Shown: positions 13,026 to 49,247 of the stretch, in pieces
Layout: every line of letters starts with the position of its first letter
Position numbering within the stretch: position 1 is the first letter of the stretch
Source: Bacteroidota bacterium
GTDB lineage: Bacteria; Bacteroidota; Bacteroidia; Bacteroidales; VadinHA17
Assembly (NCBI GenBank): GCA_034659275.1
Contig: JAYEGY010000117.1
Location: 42,809-106,808, forward strand
Reading direction: 5' to 3'
Length of the DNA stretch: 64,000 nt
Program-made: the position numbers and the translations under genes
Notes under the pieces: model-generated
Databases searched by the model: none
Told to the model about the DNA's origin: nothing
The model's input: only the letters and a program-made list of their open reading frames with translations

Positions 13026-13050
13026 TATAAGGTTTTGGATATTGTAAAGT

Positions 13051-13153
13051 TATGAATTATGAATATCGAATAACGAATGTCGAATATTGAAGTAATACGA
13101 ATAAAACAATTCTTCGTCATTCGCTAATCGATATTCGATATTCATCATTCAAA
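13051..13153. repeat. Inverted pair of heptad arrays (NNNGAAT x5-6 / ATTCNNN x5-6) forming a ~34-bp-arm imperfect hairpin
   Basis: The left arm 13059-13092 and the reverse complement of the right arm 13112-13145 match at 26 of 34 positions, including the first 14. The loop is ~19 nt. The right array runs into the miaA stop codon and last codons. Confidence 0.75.
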
Positions 13154-14086
13154 GCCCTGATTAATTAGTTTTAACGCTGAATCCAATTTCTGCTGGTTAT
13201 TAAGTTTGCCGTCGAGCCAGTGTATAGTAATGCCCCGCCGTTCCATACCCCTGAACCAGGTCATCTGTCTTTTTGCAAACCGGTGTATGGCAGTCTCAAG
13301 GCTCTTTTTCATCGCATCATAACTGATCCTACCCTTGAGGTAATGAGTAATATACCTGTATTCCAAACCGTAATAAGCCAGGTCATCAGGCGAGACACGC
13401 CTTTCCAGCAGAGACTTAACTTCTTCCACCATACCTGATTGCAGTCGTGATTCCAGCCTCATGCTTATTCTCTTCCGTATTTCATCCCTCTCAAAGCTGA
13501 TGCCCAGTATAAGTGGCCTTATCTGCGGGAAATAATCATCGCCGGTATCATTCTCCTGATAGTATTCCTCAATCTCAATAGCCCTTATAGCTCTTTCCCG
13601 GTCATCGATATCTGTTATGTTATGGAGGGTTTTATAAGACGAGAGTATTTTGGTCAGTTCAGCAAGCGATTTATCACCCAGCCTTCTTCTCAGTTCTTTA
13701 TTTACCGGTACTTCAATCAGCTTATACCTGCTCACTATGCTATCGATATACATACCTGAACCACCGCATACTACCGGCAGAACATCCCTTTCTTTAAGTT
13801 CCCTGTACACCCTGAGAAAATCCCGCTGGTATTCATATACGCTGTATTTACAACCCGGATCAACAATATCGATAAGATGGTAAGGTATCTTCTTCCCATC
13901 CACAATATAATCATCATAATCCTTGCCTGTGCCAATATTCATTTCACGGTATACCTGCCTGGAATCTGCACTTATTATTTCACCGCCGGTTGCTGAGGCC
14001 AGGAGGGAAGCAAAGCTGGTTTTACCTGAAGCAGTAGGCCCGGTTACCACAACTATATCCACTATATCATAATTGCTGCTTGCCAT
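13145..14086 (-). CDS. miaA: tRNA dimethylallyltransferase
   Basis: 313-aa ORF with P-loop GPTASGKTS and MiaA-typical blocks (SADSRQVYREMNIGTGK, HLIDI). Confidence 0.9.
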   Translation of the reverse strand: MASSNYDIVDIVVVTGPTASGKTSFASLLASATGGEIISADSRQVYREMNIGTGKDYDDYIVDGKKIPYHLIDIVDPGCKYSVYEYQRDFLRVYRELKERDVLPVVCGGSGMYIDSIVSRYKLIEVPVNKELRRRLGDKSLAELTKILSSYKTLHNITDIDDRERAIRAIEIEEYYQENDTGDDYFPQIRPLILGISFERDEIRKRISMRLESRLQSGMVEEVKSLLERRVSPDDLAYYGLEYRYITHYLKGRISYDAMKKSLETAIHRFAKRQMTWFRGMERRGITIHWLDGKLNNQQKLDSALKLINQGFE

Positions 14087-22832: not shown

Positions 22833-24221
22833 TTACAAATGTATCACTTCATCATAAGCTGCTGCTGCAGCCTCCATAATTGCTTCTGACATAGTCGGAT
22901 GCGGGTGTACTGATTTAATAATCTCGTGTGCCGTGGTTTCCAATTTTCGGGCAACAACAATCTCGGCAATCATCTCGGTGACACCTGCACCTAACATGTG
23001 AGCACCAAGTAATTCCCCGTATTTTTCATCGAAGATAAGCTTAACAAAACCCTCCCTGGCTCCTTCGGCCGATGCTTTACCGCTGGCGGTAAAAGGAAAT
23101 TTACCCACCTTGATTTCATATCCTTTCTCCCTGGCTTCATCCTCTGTATAACCGCATGATGCCACTTCAGGTGATGTATATGTACATGCCGGAATATTAT
23201 TATAGTCAAGGCCTTCAACTTCCAGTCCGGCGATCTTTTCGACACATATAATACCTTCAGCTGATGCCACGTGTGCTAGTGCCGGGCCCTTAACAACATC
23301 GCCTATGGCATATATCCCGTCGATACTTGTTTTATAGTATTTGTCAACCAGTATTTTTCCCTTTTCCGTTTTCACTCCTGCTTCTTCAAGGCCTATTCCT
23401 TCAATATTGGCTGTAACACCCACGGCAGAGAGCACTATGTCAGCTTCAATCTCTTCCGTTCCCTTCTTTGTTGTAACGCTTGCAACACATTTTTCGCCTT
23501 CTGTATCTACTGTCTCCACACTTGTATTTGTAAGAATCTTCATGCCAGCTTTTTTGAATGAACGTTCAAGCTGCTTTGATACTTCCTTATCCTCATTTGG
23601 AACCACGGCGGGCAGGAATTCCACAAGGCTTACTTTTGTTCCGATCGAATTATAAAAATGAGCAAACTCACTACCTATTGCACCCGAGCCAATCACTATC
23701 ATTGATTCAGGTTTTTCTTTTAGTGTCATTGCCTCACGGTAGCCAATTATTTTTTTACCGTCTATCTTCACACCCGGTAATTCTTTGGCACGTGCTCCTG
23801 TAGCAATTATTATGTGATCAGATGATAATTCCTTAGTCCCGTCATCCGTATCCACTTTCACCACGCCTTTTTTCTTGAGCTTTCCAAAACCCTCTATTAT
23901 TTCAATCTTATTTTTCTTGAAAAGATACTGTACTCCCTTACTCATTCCTTCAGCCACCGACCTGCTTCTTTCCACCATTTTTTCAAGGTTCGCACTTGCA
24001 TCGCCATCTACGCTGACCCCATATTCATCTGCATGTTTCATGAAATCAAACACTTTTGCACTTTTCAGCAGTGACTTTGTCGGGATGCATCCCCAGTTAA
24101 GGCATACGCCTCCCGGTTCTGCCTTTTCAATCACTGCCACTTTCATTTTAAGCTGTGCAGCTCTTATCGCCGCTACATAACCTCCTGGTCCGGAGCCTAT
24201 TACAATTAAATCGTATTTCAT
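22833..24221 (-). CDS. lpd: Dihydrolipoyl dehydrogenase
   Basis: I place the true start at Met-48 of the ORF-track entry (ATG at 24221; MKYDLIVIGSGPGGY FAD motif). The redox-active CLNWGCIPTK is present. The 47-codon upstream extension runs through repeat DNA. Confidence 0.92.
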   Translation of the reverse strand: MKYDLIVIGSGPGGYVAAIRAAQLKMKVAVIEKAEPGGVCLNWGCIPTKSLLKSAKVFDFMKHADEYGVSVDGDASANLEKMVERSRSVAEGMSKGVQYLFKKNKIEIIEGFGKLKKKGVVKVDTDDGTKELSSDHIIIATGARAKELPGVKIDGKKIIGYREAMTLKEKPESMIVIGSGAIGSEFAHFYNSIGTKVSLVEFLPAVVPNEDKEVSKQLERSFKKAGMKILTNTSVETVDTEGEKCVASVTTKKGTEEIEADIVLSAVGVTANIEGIGLEEAGVKTEKGKILVDKYYKTSIDGIYAIGDVVKGPALAHVASAEGIICVEKIAGLEVEGLDYNNIPACTYTSPEVASCGYTEDEAREKGYEIKVGKFPFTASGKASAEGAREGFVKLIFDEKYGELLGAHMLGAGVTEMIAEIVVARKLETTAHEIIKSVHPHPTMSEAIMEAAAAAYDEVIHL

Positions 24222-24230
24222 AATATCTGT

Positions 24231-24258
24231 GTTTCTCGTTTCTCGTTGCTCGTCCCCA
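24231..24258. repeat. 7-bp tandem units gtttctc gtttctc gttgctc gtcccca, 10 nt upstream of the lpd start
   Basis: Read directly from the sequence. Confidence 0.8.
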
Positions 24259-24282
24259 CTGACCACAATCACTGGCCGTTCC

Positions 24283-24380
24283 GAAAAAGCTAGCTTTTTC
24301 GAGAATCCTCGAATCCAAGATTCGGGACTCGCGAGCTCGCAGTACTCGCTTGCCTTCGGCAAACTCGCGCTGCTCGGTTG
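24283..24380. repeat. Palindrome-rich extragenic element (copy A)
   Basis: Contains a perfect 18-bp palindrome gaaaaagctagctttttc (24283-24300), a cgaatc-caa-gattcg hairpin and the 17-mer gcgagctcgcagtactc (24331-24347). These are followed by a ttgcc-ttc-ggcaa hairpin and ctgctcggtt (24370-24379). The 17-mer and the ctgctcggtt box recur at 33576-33592 and 33620-33629. Confidence 0.75.
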
Positions 24381-24412: not shown

Positions 24413-24422
24413 CTACATTTTC

Positions 24423-24492
24423 CTTTTTACTTTTTACTTTTATCTTTTTACTTTTATCTTTTTACTTTTGTCTTTTTACTTTTGTCTTTTAT
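24423..24492. repeat. Ten tandem heptads CTTTTNN (14-bp super-unit)
   Basis: Sequence cttttta cttttta cttttat cttttta cttttat cttttta cttttgt cttttta cttttgt cttttat. The array spans the permease stop (24454-24456) and encodes its Lys-rich tail …KIKDKSKKTKVKR*. Confidence 0.9.
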
Positions 24493-25290
24493 CTTAGCCA
24501 TAACTATCCTGCTTATTACCCACAGCAGAACCAGCGTAAAAATAATTGTTGCTCCCGTAGGTATATTAAGATACCATGAAGCCGCAAAGCCTGCAAGCAT
24601 CCCGAGAAAAGCGGATATTACAGAAATAATGATAACATTCCTGAAATCCTTAGTATATAATAATGCAATATTCGGAGGTATTGTTAGCAATGAAAGCACC
24701 AGCACCACGCCCGCGATACGTATATTCAATACAATAACAAGAGATGCCAGTATGATAAGCAGGTATTTAAAAAAGTCAACCCTGGAAGAAAAAGTCCTGG
24801 CATAACTCTCATCAAAAGCAAGATACATAATAAAACGATAGTACCTTGTAAAGAAAATGAGAAGGATAACTGACATTACAGCAAGGGCAATTAAATCGGA
24901 CGTTTTGATTGTAAGAATGCTTCCGAACAGGTAACTCATAAGGTCGGGTGTATAACCCGGTGTGAGGTATATAAAAATTATACCTATAGCCATACCCAGG
25001 GCCCATAAAAAGCCAATGGCAGAATCTTCACTCACCTTTTGTCTCGATGCAAGATATTGTATGCCCATTGCTGAAGCAACACCAAAGCATGCAGCACCAA
25101 GAACCGGGCTTATACCAATAAAAAATGCGATACCAATCCCTCCAAAACTTGAATGGGTAATACCACCTGATAGAAAAACCATCTTCTTTGAAACTATATA
25201 TGAACCGGCTATCCCTGAGGTAATGCTGCCAAATATTACTGCAAGAATGCTTTTAATCAAAAAGTTATATTCGAAAAAGGCTTCAAACAT
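24454..25290 (-). CDS. Metal (Zn/Mn-type) ABC transporter permease
   Basis: I moved the start to Met-22 (ATG at 25290), 2 nt after the upstream ATPase stop. Polytopic ABC-3 family-like sequence. Confidence 0.8.
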   Translation of the reverse strand: MFEAFFEYNFLIKSILAVIFGSITSGIAGSYIVSKKMVFLSGGITHSSFGGIGIAFFIGISPVLGAACFGVASAMGIQYLASRQKVSEDSAIGFLWALGMAIGIIFIYLTPGYTPDLMSYLFGSILTIKTSDLIALAVMSVILLIFFTRYYRFIMYLAFDESYARTFSSRVDFFKYLLIILASLVIVLNIRIAGVVLVLSLLTIPPNIALLYTKDFRNVIIISVISAFLGMLAGFAASWYLNIPTGATIIFTLVLLWVISRIVMAKIKDKSKKTKVKR

Positions 25291-25292
25291 AA

Positions 25293-26036
25293 TTAATGTC
25301 TTTTTAATACTGTATGTGGAACATCCCCGTGGGCAATCAACTGAATAGGACAATCATATGCTTCCAACTGCTCGGAGGTAATCCTACCTGAATCATGAAA
25401 ATTCAGTTTTCGGTTTACACAGGCGAAACATTTGACAAAAGTTGATATCGTACCCACATCATGCGACACCATCATTATGGTAACTGTTTTATTCAACTCT
25501 TTCAATTTATCATAAAAACCCTGTTCAAAGCTTGTATCAACGAAGCTGCCCGGTTCATCAAGGAGTAATAATTTAGGTGAACCTATAAGTGCCCTGCAGA
25601 GGTACACCCTTTGTAATTCACCGCCTGAGAGATTATTCAATGACTTGTTACGCAAATGGTATATGCCCAGTTCATTAAGTACCTTATCTGCCTTTTTTTT
25701 GTCTTCCCTGTTCATCTTTGCTTTATGCCCTTTGAGTATCATCAAGCCTGACAAAACCACATCTTTAACTGACACCGGAAAGTCACGGTCACCCTCGGCT
25801 ATCTGTGGCAGGTAGCCTATCTTATTACGTCTTATTTTATCCTTGTTATAGATCACTTCTCCCTCTGTGGGTTCAATCAGACCAAGTATCACTTTCAACA
25901 GGCTTGTCTTCCCTCCCCCATTGGGTCCGATTACACCCATGAAATCACCTTCCCTGATCTTCAGGTTAACATTTTCAATGACATTAGCGCCATCATAAGA
26001 AGCAGATACTCCTTTCAGTTCTATTAGTGTGTCCAT
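25293..26036 (-). CDS. Metal ABC transporter ATP-binding protein
   Basis: 247-aa ORF with Walker A GPNGGGKTS, signature LSGGELQR and Walker B LLLLDEP. Confidence 0.87.
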   Translation of the reverse strand: MDTLIELKGVSASYDGANVIENVNLKIREGDFMGVIGPNGGGKTSLLKVILGLIEPTEGEVIYNKDKIRRNKIGYLPQIAEGDRDFPVSVKDVVLSGLMILKGHKAKMNREDKKKADKVLNELGIYHLRNKSLNNLSGGELQRVYLCRALIGSPKLLLLDEPGSFVDTSFEQGFYDKLKELNKTVTIMMVSHDVGTISTFVKCFACVNRKLNFHDSGRITSEQLEAYDCPIQLIAHGDVPHTVLKRH

Positions 26037-31258: not shown

Positions 31259-31496
31259 TGAATATCGAATATCGAATATCTATTAACGAAGGCAGAAGTA
31301 GAGTCGGCGGACGAGTGATTCTAGCTCGACGAATAAAGTGAGTTAATTTCAAATTAATTGATTTTAAAAAGTTTAATAATAAGAAATTGGGGCAGATATT
31401 AAATCATATCCAGGCAATATAAACCTCTGCAACAATGAGAATTAAACCTGAAATCATCCAGTAACTACTTCGTCATTCGGCGTTCGATATTCATTA
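31259..31496. repeat. MITE-like element bounded by the same inverted heptad termini as 13059-13145
   Basis: The left end is tgaatatcgaatatcgaatatc…acgaagg (31259-31292). The right end is cttcgtcattcggcgttcgatattcat (31470-31496), which is its imperfect reverse complement. cttcgtcattcg (12 nt) and ttcgatattcat (12 nt) are identical to 13112-13123 and 13134-13145. Confidence 0.5.
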
Positions 31497-32262: not shown

Positions 32263-33528
32263 ATGTTATCTCAAAAAGTGTCCGGGACCTCAGTGGGCAT
32301 GTGGCTTCTTGTACCAGAATTGTTAAGACTGGGAGCATGGGACATAATAAAAGCATGGACTGGAAAAACAGATATCGATCTGGATCCAAGAATAGCACTA
32401 CAGGTTGTAAACGAGACGGCTCTATGTGTAAACCGTATCAGGAGAAAGAGTTCATTGGGCCACCAGGGCTTTCAACTGGTCAATGGCATGGGAAGGTTAA
32501 TAACAGATGAGCAGGTACATACTTTGTTAAATAACCATACTACCTCTGAGGCACAGCAAATGCTGGTAAATCTAGGCATTCAAAGAAAACTATCCGGGCA
32601 CTATCCGGGGGATGTTATTGCTATTGACCCACACAGGATAATAAGCAGTTCAAAAAGAATAATGGCAAAAAAGCGTAAGCAGACCGATGCTCCTTCCAAG
32701 AAAATGCTCCAGACTTTTTTCAGTGTTTGCACCCAGACAGGACAACCTATTATGGCAAGCATCTCATCAACAGGATTACCAACTTCAAAAGCAACTGCAA
32801 ATTTAATCGATGCCACAGGAGAGATAATTAAAAAGGAAAGGCTTGTAGTTGCAGACAAGGAACATTTTACAAGAGAGTTATTAGATATATCCAGAAAACA
32901 TGAACATTTTGACTTCTTAATTCCTGCTCTTAATACCTCAAAGCTTAAAAATAAAATACAGGACCTTAATTATAAACCACTATGGGCTGGTTTTGCCATA
33001 GCCGAAACCGATTTTTGTTTTGCACATGACACAACAAAATATCGGCTTATTGCTGAAAGAACGGGAGAAACTGCAAAAAACTACTCCTATAACGCTTTCA
33101 TTACCACATCAAAAAATGATGCCAAGCAATTAATATGTAATAACTACGATAAACGGTGGTCAGTGGAAGAGTTCTTCAGGTTTGAAAACGACATGGGTTT
33201 AAACAGGGCTTCTACTCTTAACCTAAATGTCAGATATGGTAAACTGGCATTGGCTATGATAGCCCAGGCAGCAGCATACCAATTAGGAAATAAATTAAAG
33301 GAAGACTACCGTAAATGAGATGCAAAACATTTATCCAATGAAGTGCTTGCATGGGCAGATGGAGACACAAGGGTCAAGAGTGATACAATACTAATAACAT
33401 TTTATGGTAAACCTACACACTTAAATCCGCAGGATTACATAAATCTACCAGCCAGGTTAATAGCAGAAGATATAAACCCCAAAATCCCCTGGCTATATGA
33501 TTATAAAATTGATTTTAAATTTAAATAA
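32263..33528 (+). pseudogene. IS transposase OrfB (DDE domain) interrupted by an in-frame TGA at 33316-33318
   Basis: ORFs 32263..33318 and 33343..33528 are in the same frame, separated only by TGA (…EDYRK*DAKHLSNEVLAWADG…). Candidate DDE residues are IAIDPHRI, LVVADKEHF and YDKRWSVEEFF (Y-x2-R-x3-E). Confidence 0.65.
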
Positions 33529-34414: not shown

Positions 34415-34474
34415 GCTATATAGTTTTTATAATTATTCACATTTCAAATATAAACACAAAAGCGAGCAGATTTT

Positions 34475-34501
34475 GTTAACACAGGGTTAATGTAGGGTTA
34501 A
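34475..34501 (+). promoter_or_regulatory. Three GTTAA direct repeats at exact 11-bp phasing (candidate OmpR/PhoB-type regulator box)
   Basis: GTTAA starts at 34475, 34486 and 34497 (tGTTAAcacag gGTTAAtgtag gGTTAAagcct), 33-60 nt upstream of the kinase start candidates. Confidence 0.4.
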
Positions 34502-34533
34502 AGCCTTCTGAGCTGTCTTATAAATACTTAAAT

Positions 34534-35922
34534 TTGATCCGGTGTAAATATACTATCATGTGGAAACTGAAGACTCTCTTACCTGTATCTGCTGCACTGG
34601 CAATATTTATACTGGCACAGATATATATCGTCCGCCAGGTATGGAAACAGAAGGATGAGGTATTTGCATTAAAGTACAGGTCAGAAGCAAAGGAAGCCAT
34701 ACACGAAATGTCATCATATGACCCCTATAATGGTTTTAAAAAAGCATATTTTGTTCTTGATGATATTTCCCGCTTATACCTTCAGAAAAAGAAGGCCCTG
34801 CAGAACCCCGAGGATTCAGCAATGTTTGCAAAGAATGTAAGGGATAACTTCACAAAAATATTGTCTGAGGACCAGTTGCTTTCTGAATATCTCAGCAAGT
34901 ATTTTGAAAAGCTGGGACTGGAAAGCAAAATCAAACCATTGATATACGTCAATTATATTGACCTGATAGATATCCAGGAAAATATCAGTGTTTACAGGGC
35001 CCCAATCAGTGTAATCAAAAAACAACAGTCTAATCAAAGTATTCTTGTTTATACCTTTAACAGCGAAGGGAATAATTATAAAATATCCTTTGATTATTAT
35101 ATAGATGTAGCAAACAAGGAAAAGATAATACTTCGTGAAATAAGCCTTACACTCATACTGAGTATTTTAAGTTTCGGAATAATAGTTGCCATATTTATTG
35201 CCACAATGAAGAGCTACCTCGAGGAAAAAAGATTGTCAAACCTCAAGACTGACTTCATAAACAATATGACCCATGAGTTGAAAACTCCACTTTCAACCAT
35301 CACAGTTGCAGGAAAAACCCTCAAGCATGATTCTGTTATTGGCAACAGGGAAAAGATAATAGAGACTGCAAACATGATCGGCAAGCAATCACTTCACCTT
35401 AACGAGCTTATTAATCTTATCCTGGATATAAGCATGTGGGAAAGAGCACAGTTCCAGGTTAATAAGAAAGTCACCAATGTTGAGGAATTATTGAAAGATA
35501 TAACATGTAGTTTCAAAAACGGATGCGATGAGGCTTATAAATTCACCGAATGCTATAAGCTTAACGGGGCACGGGCAAAAATAGACGACCTGTACTTCAC
35601 CACCATGATCAATAACCTGCTGAATAATGCTGTGAAGTATTCAAAGAACAGCCCTGAGATACGCTTTGAAGCATTAAGTACCGAAAACGAAATTAACATT
35701 AAGATCGCAGATAAGGGGATTGGTATCAGCCGGAGTGACCAGAAGAATATTTTTGATAAATTTTACCGTGTCAGAACAGGTGATATACACCAGTCAAAAG
35801 GCCTTGGACTGGGCCTTTACTATGTGAAAAAGATTGCCGAAGCGCATGGCGGTTCAGTAAGTGTAAGCAGCAAAAAGGGTAAAGGAAGCGTCTTTATAGT
35901 AAGTATACCGAAAACAACATAA
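34534..35922 (+). CDS. Sensor histidine kinase
   Basis: 462-aa ORF with two TM segments flanking a ~170-aa extracytoplasmic region, an H-box FINNMTHELKTPLSTI and an HATPase_c domain (GLGLGLYYVKKIAEAHGGSVSV). The alternative start Met-9 (34558) is possible. Confidence 0.88.
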   Translation: MIRCKYTIMWKLKTLLPVSAALAIFILAQIYIVRQVWKQKDEVFALKYRSEAKEAIHEMSSYDPYNGFKKAYFVLDDISRLYLQKKKALQNPEDSAMFAKNVRDNFTKILSEDQLLSEYLSKYFEKLGLESKIKPLIYVNYIDLIDIQENISVYRAPISVIKKQQSNQSILVYTFNSEGNNYKISFDYYIDVANKEKIILREISLTLILSILSFGIIVAIFIATMKSYLEEKRLSNLKTDFINNMTHELKTPLSTITVAGKTLKHDSVIGNREKIIETANMIGKQSLHLNELINLILDISMWERAQFQVNKKVTNVEELLKDITCSFKNGCDEAYKFTECYKLNGARAKIDDLYFTTMINNLLNNAVKYSKNSPEIRFEALSTENEINIKIADKGIGISRSDQKNIFDKFYRVRTGDIHQSKGLGLGLYYVKKIAEAHGGSVSVSSKKGKGSVFIVSIPKTT

Positions 35923-35930
35923 CCAGAGCC

Positions 35931-36623
35931 ATGAAAGTATTAATAGCGGAAGATGATATTGACTTTGGCAATATACTGAGTCAGTACGTCTCTATCAACG
36001 GTTTCGAGGTTACCCTCACCCGCGATGGAAAAGAAGCCTGGGGCAGCTATAGCCGGGAAAAACCGGATATTTGTGTTCTTGACGTAATGATGCCTGAAAT
36101 GGACGGTTTCTCTCTGGCAGAGAAAATCAGGCAGAATAACCCCGATATGCCGTTCGTATTTCTCACGGCTAAAACACTCAAGGAAGATATTGTGAAAGGC
36201 CTTAAGATGGGTGCCGATGACTATATAACAAAGCCATTTGACCCCGAGGTGCTTATACTGCGTCTTAATAATATACTTAAAAGGGTTTATACCACTGTTA
36301 ATGATGAATACACCATATCTTCCACCACTCTCAAATTTAACACGCTCGAGCTACACTGCAAAGGCAAAAAAGAAAAGTTAACCCTCAAGGAAGCACAATT
36401 GCTTCGCTACCTCATGGCCAATAAAGACAGTATATTACGCCGCGATGCCATCCTCAACGAAGTATGGGGTGAGGATGATTATTTCCTGGGTCGCAGCATG
36501 GATGTCTTTATCAGCAGGCTGAGGAAGTACCTGTCACCAGATCCCGGAATTGAGCTCAGGACAATAAGAGGTACGGGCTTTGTGCTTGAAGAGACAGGTA
36601 AAGAGATGAGAGATGAGAGATGA
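35931..36623 (+). CDS. OmpR/PhoB-family response regulator
   Basis: 230-aa ORF with a receiver domain ([10 protein letters not shown]) and a winged-helix output (…[11 protein letters not shown]…IRGTGFVLE). The last codons (EMRDER*) are encoded by the tandem array. Confidence 0.9.
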
Positions 36624-36831
36624 GAGGCGAAAGATGAGATGCGAGAGGCGAAAGATGAGATGCGAGAGGCGAAAGATGAGATGCGAGAGGCGAAAGATGA
36701 GATGCGAGAGGCGAAAGATGAAATGCGAGAGGCGAAAGATGAGATGCGAGAGGCGAAAGATGAAATGCGAGAGGCGAAAGATGAGATGCGAGAGGCGAAA
36801 GGTGGGAGGCGAGAGGCGAAAGGTGGGAGGC
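36603..36831 (+). repeat. 229-bp purine-rich tandem array: gagatga x3 then ~10 x 21-bp gagatgcgagaggcgaaagat (7-bp sub-period)
   Basis: Units read directly at 36615, 36636, 36657, 36678, 36699, 36720, 36741, 36762, 36783 and 36804. Variants are gaaatg in two units and ggt/gggaggc in the last two. Confidence 0.95.
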
Positions 36832-36927
36832 TAAATACTAAAGACAAGATCTCAAGTCAATAACCGGTAATCATAGAACATTTTACTATTTTTGACGGCG
36901 AACCCTGCTTGATCAAAAACAACAGGA

Positions 36928-38043
36928 ATGAATAGTAACAGGCTGCTTCCTCTGATTCTTATTTTCTTTCTGACAGTTAAACCGGGTATGCTGCTGTCGC
37001 AGACTGACAGTCTTCATAAGCCGGTAGTGATCGGTTTGCATGGTTCATATGGATTCATAATTCCACATTCCAGTAAGATTGAACCTGTTTCTCATAGCAA
37101 TCCGTTTTCGTTAGAGCTGAACTTCGCCCTGCATCTCACTGACGAAGATATCTGGAAGTACTGCTTCTGCTATCCCCGGCTGGGGGCAGCTGTTCATTAC
37201 GTCGATTTTGGAAACAGGGAGGAACTCGGTTCGGCAATTGCACTGTACCCCTATATTGAACCATTCATAGGGGCAGGCAAAAGGCTTAGCATGGCTGTGC
37301 GCTTTGGACTGGGAATATCATATCAGACAACCATCTATGATGAGATCGATAATCCACGTAACTTGTTTTTCGGATCCCATTTTGCCTTTATAGCCATGCT
37401 TAACACGAGCCTGAATTTTAAGCTGAATGAGAACATGTACGGCAGGCTTTCTTTTAATTACAACCATCTCTCTAATGGCGGTGCCATCAAACCTAATCTT
37501 GGGATTAACTACCCCCTTTTTGGCCTTGGACTGGATTACGTTATTAAACCATATGACTTTGAAGAGAGGGAAAAGAACAGGGATATAATTTTGAATCCGG
37601 ACAGGAACCGCTTTGACCTGGCTCTCTTCTTTTCGGGACGTGAGGGTAAAGATTTTGACCGCTGGTTCGGGGTTTATGGCATCTGGGGTGGCTACAGCCG
37701 GATGGTTGGCAGGATAAGTGCCTTTTACACCGGGGCGGAGTTCGTTTCCGATCATCTTCTAAAAAGAACGGTCTGGCAGGATTATAAGGACGGCACTATA
37801 GATGAATTACCCGATCATAAGAGGCTAAGCATCCTCCTGGGTCATGAACTCGTGCTGGGTAATTTTCTTTTTTCACAGTATGCAGGCATCTATGTTTATT
37901 CCCCTGTCACTGCACCCAAACCATGGTACCAGAGGTATGCCCTGCTTTACAACTTTGCACCCTCTACATGGATCGGTGTAAATGCCAAATCCCATTACCA
38001 GGTTATCGATTTCATCGACCTGAGGCTGGTAAGGTCATTCTGA
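36928..38043 (+). CDS. Acyloxyacyl hydrolase / lipid A deacylase (PagL-like) outer-membrane protein with extra C-terminal half
   Basis: 371-aa ORF with a signal peptide. The N-terminal ~190 aa looks like a beta-barrel with the HxSNG motif (FNYNHLSNGGAIKPNLGIN) typical of the PagL family. A further ~170 aa is beta-rich and ends …LRLVRSF. Confidence 0.55.
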   Translation: MNSNRLLPLILIFFLTVKPGMLLSQTDSLHKPVVIGLHGSYGFIIPHSSKIEPVSHSNPFSLELNFALHLTDEDIWKYCFCYPRLGAAVHYVDFGNREELGSAIALYPYIEPFIGAGKRLSMAVRFGLGISYQTTIYDEIDNPRNLFFGSHFAFIAMLNTSLNFKLNENMYGRLSFNYNHLSNGGAIKPNLGINYPLFGLGLDYVIKPYDFEEREKNRDIILNPDRNRFDLALFFSGREGKDFDRWFGVYGIWGGYSRMVGRISAFYTGAEFVSDHLLKRTVWQDYKDGTIDELPDHKRLSILLGHELVLGNFLFSQYAGIYVYSPVTAPKPWYQRYALLYNFAPSTWIGVNAKSHYQVIDFIDLRLVRSF

Positions 38044-38064
38044 TGATTTTAGAGATCCTTCGCT

Positions 38065-38113
38065 GCGCTCAGGATGACAAGGCGCTCAGGATGACAAGGC
38101 GCTCAGGATGACA
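38065..38113. repeat. 3 x 17-bp tandem repeat gcgctcaggatgacaag filling the convergent spacer
   Basis: Units at 38065-38081, 38082-38098 and 38099-38113. The last unit abuts the TAA (38114-38116) of the minus-strand S9 peptidase. Confidence 0.9.
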
Positions 38114-40645
38114 TTATTTCATGAGTTCGTAGCCCAGGTCATACTCCTTCTCAACGGCTGGTATACCTTTCTTCATCCATTTTGGCATTGGTTCGCCCTT
38201 AAGGTAATGAGCGAAGAACTGCGCCAGCCGTATCTGGAAATCCTGTTTGTTCTTAAGCTGCTGGGGCCAGTGAGGTTCACCGGTATAGTTAAGCATCCAG
38301 ACCGGTTTTTGTAACCTGCGGAGAGCTATAAAATACTCAATACCCTGATACCATGGCACATGACCATCCTTGTCGTTATGCATGATCAGTATGGGCGTGG
38401 TAACCTTATCCATTGTGAATAATGGTGAATTTTCAAAATACCTCAACGGCTCTTCCCAGATACTCCCGCCTATCCTGCTCTGTGTATGCTCATACTGGAA
38501 CGACCTGTTAAGTCCCGTCCACCAACGTATACCGCCATAGGCACTGAACATATTAACCACAGGGGCTCCGGATTCAATAGCGGCAAACATGTCAGTCCGG
38601 GTTGCAAGATAAGCCACCTGGTAACCACCCCAGCTATGCCCCTGGGCACCTATGCTCTCAGGATCAATAAATCCTTCGTCCACAAGGACAGTTACACCGG
38701 GCATTACGCAGTTATAAGCACTCTCACCGGGGTAACCTTCCTGGTAGTAAACGTCGGGATTGAATATTACGTAGCCATTACTTGTATAATAATGATAATC
38801 TATAGTGGACCGGTGCAATTCAGGGATCCTGTGATTATACAAACCGCCTGATGACTTTTCATAAAAATTAACGATCATAGGGTATTTCTTCGACGGATCA
38901 AAATTTTCCGGCTTATAAAGCAATCCCTCCAGTTTCATGCCATCGAGTGATGTCCAGTTATATAGTTCAGCTGTACCCCAGAGGAATTCATCCTGTTGCG
39001 GATTGGCATTGCTTATCCTGGTACTGCTCCTGAATTTCAGGTCTGATACCAGGAGATCAGGGAAGATATCAAAGGTTTCCCTGGAGTATATAACGGTCTC
39101 TGCATCATCAGCTTTCTGCGGACGTGAAAGTTCATACTCACCGCCGATTAAGAGATCAGGTTCGGATGCTTTCTTCAATCCCCACTTATAATATCCTGAT
39201 TCACGGCTTTCCTCATTGGTGCCTGTGAGATATTGTATTTCCTTATCACTGATAAAATCTTCATCTCTGTCAAAACGTATGAGCCTGTAGGTTATTTTAT
39301 CTTCACGTCCACTAACTGTCATGTTAACAGGAACATATGCATTTTCTGGGTCCACCTTCCAGATATCATACCGGTCGTATATAAGCACTGCAGCATCTTC
39401 TTCAAGCCAGCCCGGCGATCCGTAAGGATAGGCATAATTAGGCACATCATTCAGTTCGTTCTCTGCCCTGACGGTTCGTGGCTCAGTAATCCGGTATTCT
39501 TTCCCTGACTCTATGTCATAAGTATAGTATGAATAATCAGGGTAATTGAACCATGCCAGGTAATTGCCACCGGGAGATGACTCCACCCTGGCACGTATAT
39601 CCTTCTTGATCATCTCTCTCTCTCCCGTGGCCAGGTCCATCAGGTATACATCATAATGATCAGGACTTCCCTCCCACATCGATTGCAGTTCGTATGGTTT
39701 GTTTGAAAGCAGAAGTACATGTTTGGAATTCCCGTCATCAATAAGCCTGGAATCGGGGATGTCCTCTGTTTCAACCTGCAATGTTTTATGAGTTTCCCTG
39801 TCATACATTGCGAGGTAGGTTCTTTTCAGTATTCGTTCTCTATTTATTACCTGCACCGTATGAAGAATCCCTTCACGGCCATGCCAAATGTCAACATTAG
39901 GGTATTCCTCGTCAAGTATTGTGCTATCACGCTCAGGCCGCACGGGGGCAGTACCAAAAAACAACCTTGTGCCATCATCAGAAAATATTATCCTGCCATT
40001 TTCACTTATTTCCCAATCTTCGGGGAAGGCATCATTATCATTATTTACTACTTCCTCAGCCCTGTCACCTGACCAGAGGTAAAGAGAATAATCTGAACCT
40101 TCATCATCCCCATTTGCAGAAAGGAAAGCCAGCATATCACCATTTTCAGTTATGGCAAGCTGCTTATATTCATTTTCACCGGTCATTATCTCATTAAGCT
40201 TTTCCTCGGCTAAATCATAAAGATATATTCCTGGCTCAAATTCCTTATCGTCGCCTGTTGAAACAAAAAACAGTTTCCTGCCTTTCTCGGCAAAATTATA
40301 TTCAGTGACGAAAGGCCAGGTTAGTAATTCACTGTTTGTAAGATTTTTAAAGTAAAGCACAGAACCATTTTCCCCGGATTCTTTTTTAGCTTTTCCCTCT
40401 TCTTCACCTTCCTCCTTTTTCTCTTTCTCTTCCTTCTTCCCCGATTCAGCAGGCTCCAGCTGGTAAGCAATATAAGGTGCCCATTCTTCGGGTATTTTAT
40501 AGTTTTTGAATTCTTTCAGGGAATCAATTGTCCCAGAGCTTATATTGTATATGCCAAGTACATCACCAGGCATATCTTCCTCTTTTGTATCCTTGAGTTT
40601 CAACTCCCTCACACGTTCATATTCAGGCTCAATGGTAAATATCAT
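38114..40645 (-). CDS. S9 family serine peptidase (beta-propeller + alpha/beta hydrolase); 5' part frameshifted
   Basis: 843-aa ORF with nucleophile GHSWGGYQ. The same frame is open upstream to ~40912 without a start codon. A signal-peptide mini-ORF starting at 40914 lies in another frame (see findings). Confidence 0.85.
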   Translation of the reverse strand: MIFTIEPEYERVRELKLKDTKEEDMPGDVLGIYNISSGTIDSLKEFKNYKIPEEWAPYIAYQLEPAESGKKEEKEKKEEGEEEGKAKKESGENGSVLYFKNLTNSELLTWPFVTEYNFAEKGRKLFFVSTGDDKEFEPGIYLYDLAEEKLNEIMTGENEYKQLAITENGDMLAFLSANGDDEGSDYSLYLWSGDRAEEVVNNDNDAFPEDWEISENGRIIFSDDGTRLFFGTAPVRPERDSTILDEEYPNVDIWHGREGILHTVQVINRERILKRTYLAMYDRETHKTLQVETEDIPDSRLIDDGNSKHVLLLSNKPYELQSMWEGSPDHYDVYLMDLATGEREMIKKDIRARVESSPGGNYLAWFNYPDYSYYTYDIESGKEYRITEPRTVRAENELNDVPNYAYPYGSPGWLEEDAAVLIYDRYDIWKVDPENAYVPVNMTVSGREDKITYRLIRFDRDEDFISDKEIQYLTGTNEESRESGYYKWGLKKASEPDLLIGGEYELSRPQKADDAETVIYSRETFDIFPDLLVSDLKFRSSTRISNANPQQDEFLWGTAELYNWTSLDGMKLEGLLYKPENFDPSKKYPMIVNFYEKSSGGLYNHRIPELHRSTIDYHYYTSNGYVIFNPDVYYQEGYPGESAYNCVMPGVTVLVDEGFIDPESIGAQGHSWGGYQVAYLATRTDMFAAIESGAPVVNMFSAYGGIRWWTGLNRSFQYEHTQSRIGGSIWEEPLRYFENSPLFTMDKVTTPILIMHNDKDGHVPWYQGIEYFIALRRLQKPVWMLNYTGEPHWPQQLKNKQDFQIRLAQFFAHYLKGEPMPKWMKKGIPAVEKEYDLGYELMK

Positions 40646-47500: not shown

Positions 47501-47853
47501 TTGCACTTATCAACAGCGAAATAAGATGGCCGGTGATAAGGTATATTGCAGGACGTCCCCTCAAATCCAAAATATTGAATGACTTCCAGGTAGTAGCTTT
47601 TGGGGATATTGGCGCAGCATGGAGCGGTCCGGACCCATGGTCGGGAGAAAACAAATGGGATACCGAAACTATTGAAAACGGACCTGTTAAAGTGTATCTC
47701 AACACTAACAGGCAACCAATAGTCGGTGGCTTTGGATTTGGATTGAGAGCAAATCTCTTTGGCTATTTCGTAAGAGCTGACTGGGCATGGGGTGTGGAAA
47801 ACTTAAATATCCTGCCGGGAATCTTCTACCTCTCTTTCAGCCTCGATTTTTAG
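44572..47853 (+). CDS. Large outer-membrane protein: TolB-like beta-propeller region plus Omp85/BamA-like C-terminal barrel
   Basis: 1093-aa ORF with a GTG start (an alternative TTG lies at 44578) and a signal-like N-terminus. It has WD40/TolB-like repeats (SISPDERYVAYITYNWGKRKIWIHD; DYSPNGNRLVMSA). The C-terminus resembles the surface-antigen barrel (…GFGFGLRANLFGYFVRADWAWG…). Confidence 0.6.
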   Translation: MHLNVKIRHIILTILLSVISVTANSQFYNGLQMTFGKNRLQYYDFYWSFYRFDYFDVYFNEYGKELAQYTASVAQDKIAEIEDYFDYILEKRLIFITYNLHGEQKQTNIGLVTGQDDYNIGGFSRTIKNKVMLYYEGKHEEYDQQIAAAITEAMINEMLYDADRRDRIPGSSQISLPDWYLKGLVNYIARGWDYETENKVRDGILSGRYKKLNFLEYDAAVYAGHSFWRYIAKTYGDPIIPNVIYLTKIYKNVDDGLMYVLGMKLKDLQKEWYEYYKEYYENIENGDPTDEPGEKIHETKKRRIIQDVSISPDERYVAYITYNWGKRKIWIHDTETGKREKIFSIEPKYEQVTDISYPVLGWHPNSRILTFINEEKGDLKIYFHRLVGNETESRNLLYFEKVLDFDYSPNGNRLVMSAVKNSLTDIYVHTIASGTNEQITRDVADDLNPRYIKSAENSIIFSSNRLNDTLDIPFDPIAKTGLTYDLFTYDLEKDDKVAIRLSEGEYIERFQPIARNPREIYYLGDMSGTINKYVARFDSTISYIDTTTHYRYFIKSDPLTNYNRNIIEHDFAGNTVAEIKFKDGSYHLYTGPVNEQQPIPEEELVTTNYREEKTEILHEADSIEQLRQELIELDRRRRDTLQKPLYEYYATDEPIDINYYIFEKEKENYYEQQWREDYMGIELDTGKLKFPAIRIYETSFYNNYIANQVDFNFLNQSYQAYSGGAPYFNPGFNLLTQIGAVDLFEDYKITGGFRFAGNFDSNEYLLSIENLKGSFDKQFVFHRQAISSYNDDDYFKIHSHNLYFTLAKPLSPVLALKGTISYRNDRYVALATDINSLNDDAIYRNWGGLKYEIVYDNTRNRGVNIYFGTRFKIFGEYYTDVQKKKTDMFVVGADFRHYLRIHRDLIWANRFAASSSFGPTKLLYYLGGVDNWLGFLFNDVPMFDKSVPVDPTANYAFHTLATNMRGFSQNIRNGNNFALINSEIRWPVIRYIAGRPLKSKILNDFQVVAFGDIGAAWSGPDPWSGENKWDTETIENGPVKVYLNTNRQPIVGGFGFGLRANLFGYFVRADWAWGVENLNILPGIFYLSFSLDF

Positions 47854-47870
47854 ACATACCAGATCAATAT

Positions 47871-49079
47871 ATGGACAGCATAGCGGAAACCATCAGTCAG
47901 AGTGCCAGGGAAATATTTGATGAGACTGTGAGTCTCAGAAGACATTTTCATATGTACCCTGAATTATCCTTTAATGAGTATGATACTTCTCAATTTATAT
48001 GTGATTACCTCGATAAACATAAAATTGACTATATCAGGAACCTTGCAGGAACAGGTATAATAGCATGGATAAAAGGTGCAAAAGAAAATGGGAAAGTGAT
48101 TGCTCTCCGTACCGAGCTGGATGCATTACCCGTTAAAGAAGCAACCGGCCTGGAATACGCCAGTAAAAAAAGCGGAATTATGCATGCATGTGGACATGAT
48201 GCGCATATGGCTATGCTGATATCGTCAATAATAATAATAAAGGGGATAAGGAAACACTTTGGAGGCAAGATAGCTTTCATATTTCAACCCGGCGAAGAAC
48301 TTGCTCCCGGCGGTGCACGTTTAATTATGGACACAGGAGCCTTTAAAGACCTTAATCCCGATCTTGTCATCGCACAGCATGTGCTGCCTGAATTTGAATC
48401 AGGTATGACGGGCTTCAGGGCTGGTAAATATATGGCATCAAGCGATGAAATACATATAAGAATATACGGGCGTGGAGGACATGCTGCATTGGCTGATCAA
48501 TACACCGACCAGGTATTGATAGGAAGCGAACTGGTGGTAAGACTAAAAGAAGCTGCCGCTAATTATAATACAAAAGAACCCCTGGTATTGGGGATAGGGC
48601 ATTTTACAGCCCAAGGTGCAGCCAACGTGGTACCGGAAGAAGTGAATATCAAGGGTACTATACGAACATTCGATGAAAAAATAAGGAAGGATATAAAAGA
48701 GCTCGTTTCCCTTATATGCAAACAAACAGAAGAAAAATACAGGGTAAATATTGAACTTAAAATACCCGATGGTTATCCTGTACTGGTAAATAATGACGAA
48801 TATATCAATATGTCTGTTAACCTGGCAAAAGAAATCAACGGGGAAAATATGGTTAAGGAAATCGGACCGAGAATGAGCTCTGAGGATTTCGCATTCTATG
48901 CACAAAAGTATCCGGTTGTATTTTACCGCCTTGGCATCAGCAGCAAATCAGAAGGTAAAAACGGACTCCACACACCGGTTTTCACTCTCGATGAAAAAAC
49001 AATGATCACGGGGGTGAGAACACTGAGCTACCTGGGAGTCAAATTTACAGGTAGCAGGGAACAGGGGACTTTTGAATAA
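47871..49079 (+). CDS. M20 family amidohydrolase (N-acyl-amino-acid amidohydrolase type)
   Basis: I place the start at the ATG at 47871 (MDSIAETISQ…); the ORF-track extension overlaps the upstream gene. Motifs HMYPELSFNE and MHACGHDAHM are present. Confidence 0.85.
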   Translation: MDSIAETISQSAREIFDETVSLRRHFHMYPELSFNEYDTSQFICDYLDKHKIDYIRNLAGTGIIAWIKGAKENGKVIALRTELDALPVKEATGLEYASKKSGIMHACGHDAHMAMLISSIIIIKGIRKHFGGKIAFIFQPGEELAPGGARLIMDTGAFKDLNPDLVIAQHVLPEFESGMTGFRAGKYMASSDEIHIRIYGRGGHAALADQYTDQVLIGSELVVRLKEAAANYNTKEPLVLGIGHFTAQGAANVVPEEVNIKGTIRTFDEKIRKDIKELVSLICKQTEEKYRVNIELKIPDGYPVLVNNDEYINMSVNLAKEINGENMVKEIGPRMSSEDFAFYAQKYPVVFYRLGISSKSEGKNGLHTPVFTLDEKTMITGVRTLSYLGVKFTGSREQGTFE

Positions 49080-49113
49080 GCTATTAAAATACATTAAAGT
49101 ACTTCCTGCCCCA

Positions 49114-49134
49114 TGCTCCCTGCTCCCTGCTCCC
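49114..49134. repeat. 3 x 7-bp units tgctccc
   Basis: Read directly. The array starts 35 nt after the amidohydrolase stop, with degenerate copies flanking (cctgccc…tgcaac). Confidence 0.8.
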
Positions 49135-49247
49135 TGCAACTATTTATTTATGCATGTTCTAAAAATGAATTTTATCATTTTCTAATTAAGAAATATAAAT
49201 AATTTTGCACAATCATAAACATGAATTCATAACTAAAAATAATCAAA

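Follow-up and report, generated by a model that had tools for sequence, protein, structure and literature searches.

A probable young, heptamer-built minisatellite at the stop codon of an OmpR-family response regulator gene, upstream of a PagL-like gene of a Bacteroidales bacterium

In the 64-kb stretch of Bacteroidales DNA analyzed here (hereafter the window), the stop codon of an OmpR-family response regulator gene lies in a 231-bp array of 33 spacerless heptads (36605-36835, plus strand; register NNNGAGA), which ends 96 nt upstream of a gene for a PagL-like outer-membrane protein. This array is probably a young, lineage-specific minisatellite built from heptamers (i.e., a long SSR/VNTR) that was recently expanded. 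Given that the closest relatives lack it, we regard it as most likely a repeat generated by slippage rather than as a conserved control element, and we infer that it is neutral and has no dedicated conserved function. The features of the locus are as follows.

34472-34501, plus strand: conserved GTTAA triple box of direct repeats phased at 11 bp (tttGTTAAcac-aggGTTAAtgt-aggGTTAA)
34529-34536, plus strand: putative -7 motif upstream of the kinase gene, TAnnTTTG (TAAATTTG), conserved in the orthologues compared
34558-35922, plus strand: sensor histidine kinase with HisKA and HATPase_c domains, 454 aa (also 454 aa on a Logan contig)
35931-36623, plus strand: OmpR-family (RprY-like) response regulator with Response_reg and Trans_reg_C domains, 230 aa
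36603-36623, plus strand: lead-in of three GAGATGA heptads holding the regulator stop, from sequence and frame arithmetic
36605-36835, plus strand: array of 33 heptads, from TRF, 21-mer matching and self-identity
36624-36863, plus strand: continuation of the regulator frame after a single UGA, with 79 sense codons, (EAKDEMR)n, and then TAA; no sign of translation
36836-36869, plus strand: variable spacer between the array and the promoter block, with a sequence and a length that vary between the three closest lineages
36870-36896, plus strand: conserved block ATCATAGAACATTTTACTATTTTTGAC, with 100% identical 27-29-nt matches in the orthologous loci L003, L012, and L013
36928-38043, plus strand: PagL-domain outer-membrane protein, 371 aa, MEA1887734.1 (PF09411, 33.6 bits vs. 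a cut-off of 23)

Read from its 5' end, the array consists of three GATGAGA heptads and one GGCGAAA, followed by about eight to nine 21-bp units of GATGAGA TGCGAGA GGCGAAA, some of which start with GATGAAA instead of GATGAGA, and by a degenerate 3' edge (GGTGGGA GGCGAGA GGCGAAA GGTGGGA GGCTAAA). TRF detected a period of 21 bp at 36611-36822 (10.1 copies, 94% matches, score 368) and a separate period-7 lead-in at 36602-36639, while the 21-mer GAGATGCGAGAGGCGAAAGAT had 10 matches with ≤3 mismatches, compared to 0.01 expected from shuffles. Self-identity of the array was 0.64 at lag 7, 0.66 at lag 14, and 0.93 at lag 21. The tandem heptad/21-bp array recognized in an initial annotation of this DNA is thus real. 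That annotation was also right about the variant units (units 6 and 8 have GAAATG, and the last two have GGT/GGGAGGC), about the distance of some 100 bp to the PagL-like gene, which begins at ATG 36928, and about the array not being a CRISPR, as its units are contiguous and have no spacers. Units 2-5 are perfect (i.e., four in a row) and the first and last units have three mismatches each; units with GAAATG and GAGATG alternate, which suggests 42-bp duplications. The head-to-tail copies, their high identity, the homogenized interior and the degenerate edges are those of a minisatellite. The plus strand of the array is 82% purine and its RNA would be 44% G and 9% C; G-runs are confined to the last two units, and the array is not G-quadruplex-forming.

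Both unique-to-repeat junctions were reproduced exactly in contigs of an independent short-read assembly (Logan, SRR26901925), which indicates that the array is present in the reads. These contigs end inside the array, and the array length of 231 bp is that of the one assembly that spans it. Among the cluster members and contigs examined for strain-level copy-number variants, the window's species was represented only by the Logan contigs broken in the array. Short-read MAG assemblies are error-prone at tandem repeats longer than the k-mer, but the recurrence of both junctions makes it highly improbable that the array is an assembly artefact. We also consider it highly improbable that the array is a mobile or replicative element, such as plasmid-type iterons or a BrickBuilt-like MITE. 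Iterons repeat directly and in tandem, with units of about 17-22 bp, and those of the R6K gamma origin are seven contiguous 22-bp repeats; the array resembles them in its unit of about 21-22 bp and its phasing at two helical turns. It differs from them in lying in a syntenic chromosomal operon, with no origin and no rep, par or mob genes, among housekeeping neighbors (kinase, regulator, PagL-like protein, peptidases, redoxin, and MeaB), and in being missing from the orthologous loci. The BrickBuilt repeats of Porphyromonas gingivalis, 23-nt spacerless minisatellites, share with the array their occurrence in Bacteroidales, a unit of about 21-23 nt and the lack of spacers, and are always intergenic; they have, however, leader and tail subunits, inverted-repeat ends and about 19 copies per genome (PMC4596501). 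An IS transposase is located 3.3 kb upstream of the array, but no terminal inverted repeats of ≥7 nt were found between its flanks, neither the array, its unit nor its flanks recurred elsewhere in the window or in the other loci compared, and synteny with relatives is conserved on both sides. Unlike BrickBuilt, the array arose from a resident heptad tract that is common to the orthologous loci.

The comparison set consisted of 14 orthologous kinase-regulator-PagL loci (L003-L015) from other Bacteroidales MAGs and metagenomes, in which the synteny of the regulator and PagL genes is kept. None of the 14 had the 21-bp array. Instead, 13 of them had merely 2-5 imperfect heptads at the regulator stop and L011 had none, so that the alignment of orthologues proposed in the initial annotation did reveal length variation at this locus, from 0-5 heptads in the relatives to 33 in the window. 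In a neighbor-joining tree, the array was confined to the terminal branch of the window; L012 and L013, the sister lineages at 92% protein identity, were without it. In L003 and L013, the tract reads ggggcga gagatga aaggcga tatgcga tatgcga and holds the same three heptad types as the array, which indicates that a proto-array is older than the split of these lineages. An ATGA stop/start overlap had also been considered as the ancestral junction, duplicated later, and was dropped after the tree; given that a spaced junction with the promoter block is shared by the window clade and the deeper L005 clade, the compact-junction clade is more likely derived by deletion.

The series of loci is consistent with the following history. 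A short, imperfect tract of G[AC]GATGA-type heptads at the regulator stop, present almost clade-wide, would have been the starting state. In the lineage of the window alone, neighboring heptads that had diverged into GATGAGA, TGCGAGA, and GGCGAAA would have been fused into a 21-bp higher-order unit, which replication slippage or unequal recombination would then have amplified about ten-fold, leaving near-identical interior units and degenerate edges. The purity of the interior units could also reflect selection for mutability rather than youth.

The position of the array at the end of the regulator gene raises the question of whether it alters the regulator. As the initial annotation had it, the regulator ORF (35931-36623) ends in EMRDER*, its last codons being encoded by the heptad lead-in, with its TGA at 36621-36623 inside the third GAGATGA, and frame arithmetic bears out that deletion of one heptad would yield a 298-aa regulator with a 68-aa tail. 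Of the two ORFs that the annotation had assigned to the other plus-strand frames, 36613..36834 is indeed in another frame, whereas 36639..36863 is in the regulator's own frame beyond its TGA; the third plus-strand frame is the one closed by a TGA every 21 bp. Two frames, the regulator's own among them, that stay open for about 230 nt are a reasonably probable outcome of any 21-bp unit, yet they do offer a route to tailed isoforms. Only in the lead-in can a change of unit number shift the regulator frame, with two heptads giving the 298-aa product and one, three, four, five or six giving 230 aa.

A contingency switch built on this arithmetic would operate by slippage from three to two GAGATGA heptads, or by read-through or loss of the UGA, so that the DNA-binding domain of the regulator acquires a tail, 68-aa (RRKMRCE)n in the first case and 80-aa (EAKDEMR)n in the second, and the two-component output is switched in a subpopulation. 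Trans_reg_C ends at residue 219, so such a tail would follow an intact domain. The regulator C-terminus apparently tolerates change, given that the tails past GFVLEE differ in almost every lineage and that the 252-aa regulators of L003 and L013 read through their heptads and have tails 22 aa longer. The trigger, however, has only three heptads, and the frame changes on exactly one loss while gains are silent, which would make it a poor reversible switch beside known contingency tracts. The 21-bp part of the array is also frame-neutral and downstream of the stop, the tails are missing in the relatives, and there is no sign of a leaky UGA, which also ends the PagL-like gene. Searches with the three array-spanning ORFs found no match in a collection of 15 billion proteins, nor did the array peptide in the regulator frame have a homologue among 5.8 billion proteins, and the NCBI annotation has no gene between the regulator and PagL-like genes, whose accessions are consecutive. 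Thus, of the slippage-prone switch suggested initially, the slippage-type origin is supported by the short tracts of the orthologues and the expansion in this lineage, while the switch itself, though mechanically feasible, is unsupported, and we consider it quite unlikely. The sequence (EAKDEMR)n is a charged peptide of heptads, and peptides of this kind form single alpha-helices. Were the array a selected reservoir of such tails, from which UGA read-through or heptad slippage supplies tailed isoforms to a subpopulation, tail length would be set by array copy number, the DNA binding or dimerization of the regulator would be altered, and control of the lipid-A-deacylase-like gene would be diversified; we judge this very improbable.

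The array could instead act on the transcript. Rho utilization sites have a composition opposite to that of G-rich, C-poor RNA. A terminator or 3'-UTR substitute was one of the readings of the initial annotation. Such an element, which would insulate the PagL-like gene against the operon of kinase and regulator, is suggested by the start of the array at a stop codon and by other short repeats of the window at gene 3' ends, one of which (13049-13156) is a strong hairpin built of heptads. The array, however, folded less stably than shuffled sequences on both strands (z = +1.45 and +1.10; +3.03 with the 5' end of the PagL-like gene included and +1.27 in a further fold), and neither a terminator consensus nor a hairpin followed by a T-run was found at 36600-36930. 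An inverted-repeat scan found no partner for the array, and Rfam returned no family match for it even at E≤1. Having less structure than its shuffled counterparts, the array is not a terminator, and the G-rich, C-poor plus-strand RNA would be the reverse of a Rho utilization site; of the readings weighed here, insulation of the downstream gene is the one to which we give the least credence.

The kinase-regulator operon has a putative promoter region of its own. TAnnTTTG is the -7 promoter motif of Bacteroidota type established for Bacteroides promoters, and it is found ahead of the kinase gene, the start of which is likely ATG 34558 rather than the TTG 34534 of the mechanical ORF list. The regulator scored 234.5 bits against the RprY model, under the cut-off of 370 bits. 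Further upstream, the GTTAA triple box was present at the same place, either exactly or with ≤2 mismatches, in all ten loci covering the operon promoter (the window, L001, L003, L004, L005, and L007-L011), with a self-identity of 0.56 at lag 11. OmpR/PhoB-type regulators bind half-sites phased at 10-11 bp (PMC2275107; PMC4832192), and because the box has this geometry, it is the likely site and a candidate autoregulatory box of the OmpR/RprY-like regulator, as judged from its layout; a literature search found no published RprY binding motif for comparison.

These observations bear on the proposal that the array is a phased platform whose 21-bp units, each about two helical turns long, are bound cooperatively by the regulator or a nucleoid protein. 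The array adjoins the gene of a DNA-binding regulator and lies upstream of its probable target, as such a platform might. Unlike the half-sites of OmpR/PhoB-type regulators, however, it had only background self-identity at lags 10 and 11 (0.21 and 0.20), the separate, conserved and 11-bp-phased GTTAA box at the operon promoter is unrelated in sequence to the array unit, nothing similar to that box was found in the array or the spacer, and the orthologous loci do without the array. The proposal is therefore not supported for the adjacent regulator, and a binding platform of either kind is highly improbable.

Downstream of the array and the variable spacer, the conserved block at 36870-36896 contains TATTTTTG (36887-36894), a TAnnTTTG -7 motif located 34 nt ahead of the ATG of the PagL-like gene, which NCBI names "acyloxyacyl hydrolase." The TTTTTGAC core of the block is also found in L005 and L008-L010, and from its sequence the block is a putative proximal promoter of the PagL-like gene. 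The site of the array is suggestive in this regard, as it abuts the regulator stop and lies 55-290 bp upstream of the putative promoter of a gene of the lipid-A-modifying type. A copy-number rheostat that tunes lipid A remodeling across the population, similar to the (ATCTTTC)n arrays of hmw1A and hmw2A in Haemophilus influenzae, could work through read-through from the operon, the properties of the 5'-UTR or spacer, or DNA geometry upstream of the proximal promoter. The array does follow the operon promoter and precede the PagL-like gene; gain or loss of units of about two helical turns would hold the helical phase, and any intrinsic bend would add in phase. In both systems a heptamer array is found upstream of an envelope or surface gene, the target here being an outer-membrane protein of the lipid-modifying type, and copy number could grade expression, an effect documented for heptamer arrays (PMC12721329; PMC8262952). 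For repeats of the hmw type, expression is expected to be inversely proportional to repeat number. The hmw array, however, acts via a long 5'-UTR hairpin, processed by RNase III, in which the repeats pair with a G-rich partner arm (PMC12721329; PMC8262952), whereas no long hairpin is predicted for the present array (z > 0), which has no inverted partner. Close relatives with the same promoter block also do without the array, and no promoter motif was found inside it. The two further differ in that the host of the present array is an environmental Bacteroidales bacterium and not a host-adapted pathogen. By coincidence, the hmw heptamer is the reverse complement of GAAAGAT, one of the three array heptads. 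A rheostat of this kind is unlikely. A new, lineage-specific function of the array would be compatible with its absence from relatives.

A young heptamer minisatellite, which we favor, is in keeping with what is reported of bacterial repeats in general. Heptamer repeats are over-represented in bacteria, for which a slippage bias has been proposed (Mrazek et al., 2007, as summarized in PMC4679880 and PMC4692102), while repeats are described as varying widely in both length and sequence between close relatives (PMC4692102). Under a strict criterion, all arrays of the window have periods of 7, 14 or 21, and 1.2 kb away from the present array another lineage-specific tandem expansion, a perfect one of 17 bp x 2.9, is found; the dominance of these periods fits the reported excess, the proposed bias and the variation described between close relatives. 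The four strongest arrays of the window are all ≤26 nt from the stop of a long ORF. This proximity was not taken as significant, because most of the arrays fall in the small intergenic fraction in any case.

Two groups of heptamer repeats are also close to the present array. The heptanucleotide long SSRs, for example GGGAATC in Xanthomonas and GGGGAYT and the STRR heptamers in Nostoc and Calothrix, are, as far as the sources describe them, likewise spacerless and intergenic, with a period of 7 and its multiples dominant, and differ strongly in length and sequence at one site among close relatives, presumably through polymerase slippage (PMC4679880; PMC4692102). Unlike them, the heptads of the present array diverged into a higher-order unit of three heptads that was then amplified, and the array is a single locus and not a dispersed family, as covered by the 64 kb of the window and about 120 kb of related loci; the exact 21-bp unit had no match in JGI metagenome contigs or in viral contigs. 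Direct TAACTGA repeats occur in the intergenic DNA of Beggiatoaceae, Cyanobacteria and a few Bacteroidetes, reaching 43 copies in some Bacteroidetes; these heptamers sometimes overlap the upstream stop and point to the downstream gene (PMC4679880). They differ from the present array in their heptamer, in closing all three frames where the array unit leaves two open, and in occurring at many loci per genome, mostly a few nt before starts, in contrast to the one array 96 nt before a start.

In the window lineage, the array would occupy untranslated DNA between the regulator stop and the conserved promoter-like block of the PagL-like gene, and its effects would be incidental. They would be a spacer or 3'-UTR lengthened by about 210 purine-rich, unstructured bases, a probable instability of copy number, and, on rare loss of a heptad or read-through or loss of the UGA, a charged tail of 68 or 80 residues on the regulator. 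Were the array to act on regulator isoforms or on how the PagL-like gene is expressed, it would be of greater interest; the evidence does not support such a role. If its copy number is variable, as the anatomy predicts, the array would distinguish strains of an uncultured, sediment-type Bacteroidales lineage. In short-read MAGs it also breaks contigs, as it already does in the Logan assembly, and may collapse. With the array, the excess of bacterial heptamer repeats, as yet unexplained, gains an example from the Bacteroidota. The comparative series leads stepwise from 2-5 heptads, through a proto-array of three heptad types, to 33 heptads, and shows how a minisatellite with a higher-order unit of 21 bp is seeded by a short tract of heptads at a stop codon.

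The array between the response-regulator gene and the PagL-like gene is by far the strongest in the window. It lies among the following features:

upstream of the regulator gene: kinase with HisKA and HATPase_c domain matches
35931-36623, + strand: OmpR-family response regulator with Response_reg and Trans_reg_C domains
36603-36623: lead-in of three GAGATGA heptads
36605-36835: the array
36928-38043, + strand: PagL-domain ORF (PF09411, 33.6 bits vs. a cut-off of 23), whose protein NCBI names 'acyloxyacyl hydrolase'

The best curated match of the regulator was RprY (234 bits), below the equivalog cut-off of 370 bits. Run on the window, Tandem Repeats Finder recovered the array at 36611-36822 with a period of 21 bp (10.1 copies, 94% matches, no indels, score 368) and a period-7 lead-in at 36602-36639, and the 21-mer GAGATGCGAGAGGCGAAAGAT gave ten consecutive matches at ≤3 mismatches, compared to 0.01 in dinucleotide shuffles. 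Both results agree with the initial annotation, whose description of the sequence was accurate. No mismatch is seen in units 2-5, in unit 7 or in the 5′ part of unit 9, the GAAATG variant is found in units 6 and 8, and divergence is greatest in the first and last units. In the register NNNGAGA, positions 36605-36835 form 33 contiguous heptads in the order (GATGAGA)x3, GGCGAAA, eight repeats of [GATGAGA or GATGAAA / TGCGAGA / GGCGAAA], then GGTGGGA, GGCGAGA, GGCGAAA, GGTGGGA and GGCTAAA, so that each 21-bp unit contains one exact lead-in heptad. Self-identity of the array is 0.64, 0.66, and 0.93 at lags of 7, 14, and 21, respectively, and purines make up 82% of its + strand, in which G accounts for 44% and C for 9%.

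The window DNA is from an NCBI MAG (encoded proteins include MEA1887733.1 and MEA1887734.1). A separate Logan assembly (run SRR26901925) contained an identical regulator and PagL-like gene, split over two contigs. The first contig stops inside the array, 28 nt beyond the regulator stop, while the second begins within the last array units and runs identically into the PagL-like gene, which is the behavior of a k=31 assembly at a true tandem repeat. The existence of the array and both of its junctions are thus reproduced; its copy number is as given by the MAG assembly. A DDE_Tnp_1 transposase ORF (351 aa) occupies 32263-33318, 1.2 kb ahead of the kinase gene. Logan contig L001 begins shortly after it (about window 33650), in line with a multi-copy IS having interrupted the short-read assembly.

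PagL-like protein scans and cluster-member look-ups yielded 14 orthologous loci from Bacteroidales MAGs and metagenomes (78-92% protein identity). The regulator-to-PagL gene order was kept in 14 of 14 and the 21-bp array was found in none. The comparison of array length proposed in the initial annotation thus revealed a clear difference: 33 heptads in the window, and short tracts or none in the 14 others. In the alignment, the orthologous loci except L011 all have a short run of imperfect heptads where the regulator stops, including:

L012: gcgataa gcgatga gagacga
L003/L013: ggggcga gagatga aaggcga tatgcga tatgcga
L005, L008-L010 (identical in four samples): gttatga gtgatga gatttga gcgatga
L004: gagatga gataaga gagatga
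L007: gctgaga gatgaga gatgagt
L006/L014/L015: ggtgagg gatgagg

In a neighbor-joining tree, the array was confined to the terminal branch of the window, its sisters L012 and L013 being without it. The L003/L013 tract holds the same three heptad types as the 21-bp unit of the window, and the proto-array is thus older than the split. The tree also suggests that the group ancestrally had a spaced junction, in which the conserved block ATCATAGAACATTTTACTATTTTTGAC is accompanied by a TAnnTTTG -7 motif (36887-36894 in the window). The compact junction, where the regulator TGA either overlaps the PagL-like ATG or is three bases away from it within heptads, would then be derived; the reverse direction, considered first in this analysis, was dropped in light of this tree. 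The exact 21-mer had no match in JGI metagenome contigs or viral contigs. No two-component system adjoins the PagL-like relatives at 66-72% identity (L016, L017, and L018), and the kinase-regulator-PagL linkage is restricted to the clade at ≥78% identity. In L016-L018, the PagL-like gene is preceded by carotenoid-synthase or aldo-keto-reductase genes.

As the initial annotation stated, the regulator TGA (36621-36623) falls in the third GAGATGA, and ORF 35931-36623 ends with the repeat-encoded residues EMRDER. Past this single TGA, the regulator's own frame continues for 79 sense codons, (EAKDEMR)n. Two other frames had been described as open through the array; 36639..36863 is indeed open, but it is the regulator's own frame past one TGA, and the closed frame is the third, in which TGA recurs at 21-bp intervals. 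None of the array-spanning ORFs had been called as a gene, and no homologue of the frame-0 array peptide was found. Replacement of the TGA by a sense codon would give a computed product of 310 aa.

A contingency switch acting on the regulator via the lead-in heptads is unproven. The frame arithmetic works: the computed loss of exactly one lead-in heptad yields a 298-aa regulator with a 68-aa (RRKMRCE)n tail, close to the tail of ~70 aa predicted previously. The trigger would, however, consist of three heptads only, the highly repetitive part being frame-neutral and behind the stop, and only one specific change, from three to two heptads, has an effect; with 1, 3, 4, 5, or 6 lead-in heptads, the computed product remains at 230 aa. 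Past the conserved GFVLEE, almost every lineage has a different regulator tail. In L003/L013, the regulator frame crosses the local heptad tract (L003 6452-6574; L013 1298-1420) and stops about 60 nt later, giving a regulator of 252 aa with a tail 22 residues longer (...ARDERRYAICELMSFPVPAINLTSLRN). Because this regulator reads through the tract, its C-terminus has already been altered in nature by heptad-tract changes. That tailed isoforms, arising via read-through or heptad slippage, serve as a population-level switch on lipid A remodeling is highly improbable.

The array is not a terminator, a CRISPR array or an iteron array. Its folds are weaker than those of shuffles on both strands (z = +1.45 and +1.10), and with the pyrimidine-rich 5′ end of the PagL-like ORF included z rises to +3.03. 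An inverted-repeat scan found no inverted partner of the array, no terminator or sigma-70 consensus was found within it, and Rfam returned no family match even at E≤1. The terminator reading of the initial annotation, as well as a structured RNA, was rejected on these grounds. The array transcript, G-rich and C-poor, would be the opposite of a Rho loading site. By contrast, heptads do build a hairpin at 13049-13156, where opposed imperfect runs (NNNCGAA x6, then TTCGNNN x6) separate the convergent ORFs 10962-13025 (+) and 13145-14086 (-); with a dG of -33.7 kcal/mol (z = -5.27; 0 of 200 shuffles fold as well), it probably serves as a bidirectional terminator made of heptad repeats. The heptad GAATATC recurs as a 3x array at 31260-31280. 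The heptads of the array are contiguous, which agrees with the earlier exclusion of CRISPR. A mobile element or iterons are likewise unlikely: no terminal inverted repeats or second array copy were found in the window or the related loci, the neighbors are housekeeping genes, and synteny is conserved on both sides.

OmpR/PhoB-family proteins bind direct repeats with a phasing of about 11 bp (PMC2275107, PMC4832192). Array self-identity at lags of 10 and 11 was at background only, and an 11-bp-phased box is found instead at the kinase promoter:

34472-34501, + strand: conserved triple direct repeat tttGTTAAcac-aggGTTAAtgt-aggGTTAA with 11-bp phasing

The phased binding platform suggested in the initial annotation is thus not supported. 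The triple repeat, kept in the window and nine other covering loci (L001, L003, L004, L005, L007-L011), sits about 28 nt upstream of the TAAATTTG -7 motif ahead of the kinase gene and is likely a candidate autoregulatory box of the RprY-like regulator; no GTTAA-like element was found in the array or spacer. The mechanically listed kinase start, TTG 34534, overlaps this -7 motif, which makes ATG 34558 (454 aa) the probable true start; the kinase is called as 454 aa on a Logan contig.

The array falls within the heptamer-derived long SSRs or VNTRs, a known kind of repeat. In most bacterial genomes, no long simple-sequence repeats are more abundant than heptamers, which may reflect a polymerase-slippage bias (Mrazek et al., 2007, as summarized in PMC4679880 and PMC4692102). 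Intergenic heptamer arrays differ greatly in length among close relatives (PMC4692102), and some Bacteroidetes have heptamer arrays, which can overlap the upstream stop codon (PMC4679880). The lineage pattern of the array and the periods in the window match these observations. In position and unit size, the array is similar to the hmw heptamer arrays of H. influenzae, whose defining hairpin it lacks (PMC12721329). It shares unit size and host order with BrickBuilt of P. gingivalis but has neither the inverted-repeat ends nor, as far as the window and the related loci show, the multiple copies of that element (PMC4596501). Mildly unusual are the clear 3x7 higher-order structure, the evolutionary series visible in relatives and the single UGA between the regulator and a long in-frame repeat.

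We infer that the array is a young minisatellite, grown from a resident heptad tract by slippage or unequal exchange, which partly supports the initial reading of a slippage-prone repeat. Neighboring heptads would have diversified, three of them would have been captured as a 21-bp higher-order unit, and this unit would have been amplified and partly homogenized; the alternating GAAATG and GAGATG units suggest 42-bp duplications. The array probably evolves neutrally, and a dedicated function is rather unlikely. Its anatomy, its distribution over the tree and the negative folding and phasing results are direct observations; how it arose, how recently, and its neutrality are deduced from them.

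Repeats are also found elsewhere. An insertion of ~78 bp (38044-38121), 1.2 kb downstream of the array, separates the convergent PagL-like and S9 peptidase genes. Within it, 2.9 copies of a 17-bp unit, GCGCTCAGGATGACAAG, follow one another at 100% identity (38065-38113), and Logan contig L002 also terminates inside this repeat. This second lineage-specific tandem expansion is absent in L012, L013, and L014, whose PagL-like and peptidase genes abut or overlap. On the minus strand, an ABC-3 permease ORF (24454-25353) has its stop codon in a 14-bp (2x7) array at 24418-24490 (TTTTACTTTTATCT x5.2, 93% matches), and is thus another ORF ending within a heptad-based array; this array lies a short way upstream of the Pyr_redox_2 gene (22833-24362), also on the minus strand. 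CCTGCTC is repeated 4.7 times at 49105-49137, starting 26 nt past the stop of the M20 peptidase ORF (47787-49079). L004 has a perfect pyrimidine-rich 36-bp repeat (x2.3, 2627-2708), and the L005 lineage has, near gene ends, several 8-bp arrays (TTCCATTA and its complement; L005 6816-6843 and 13987-14177, same in L008-L010) instead of heptads. The preferred short-repeat period appears to differ among related lineages. By a strict criterion, every tandem array in the 64-kb window has a period of 7, 14, or 21, and, given these arrays and the nearby 17-bp repeat, the genome seems prone to tandem expansions.
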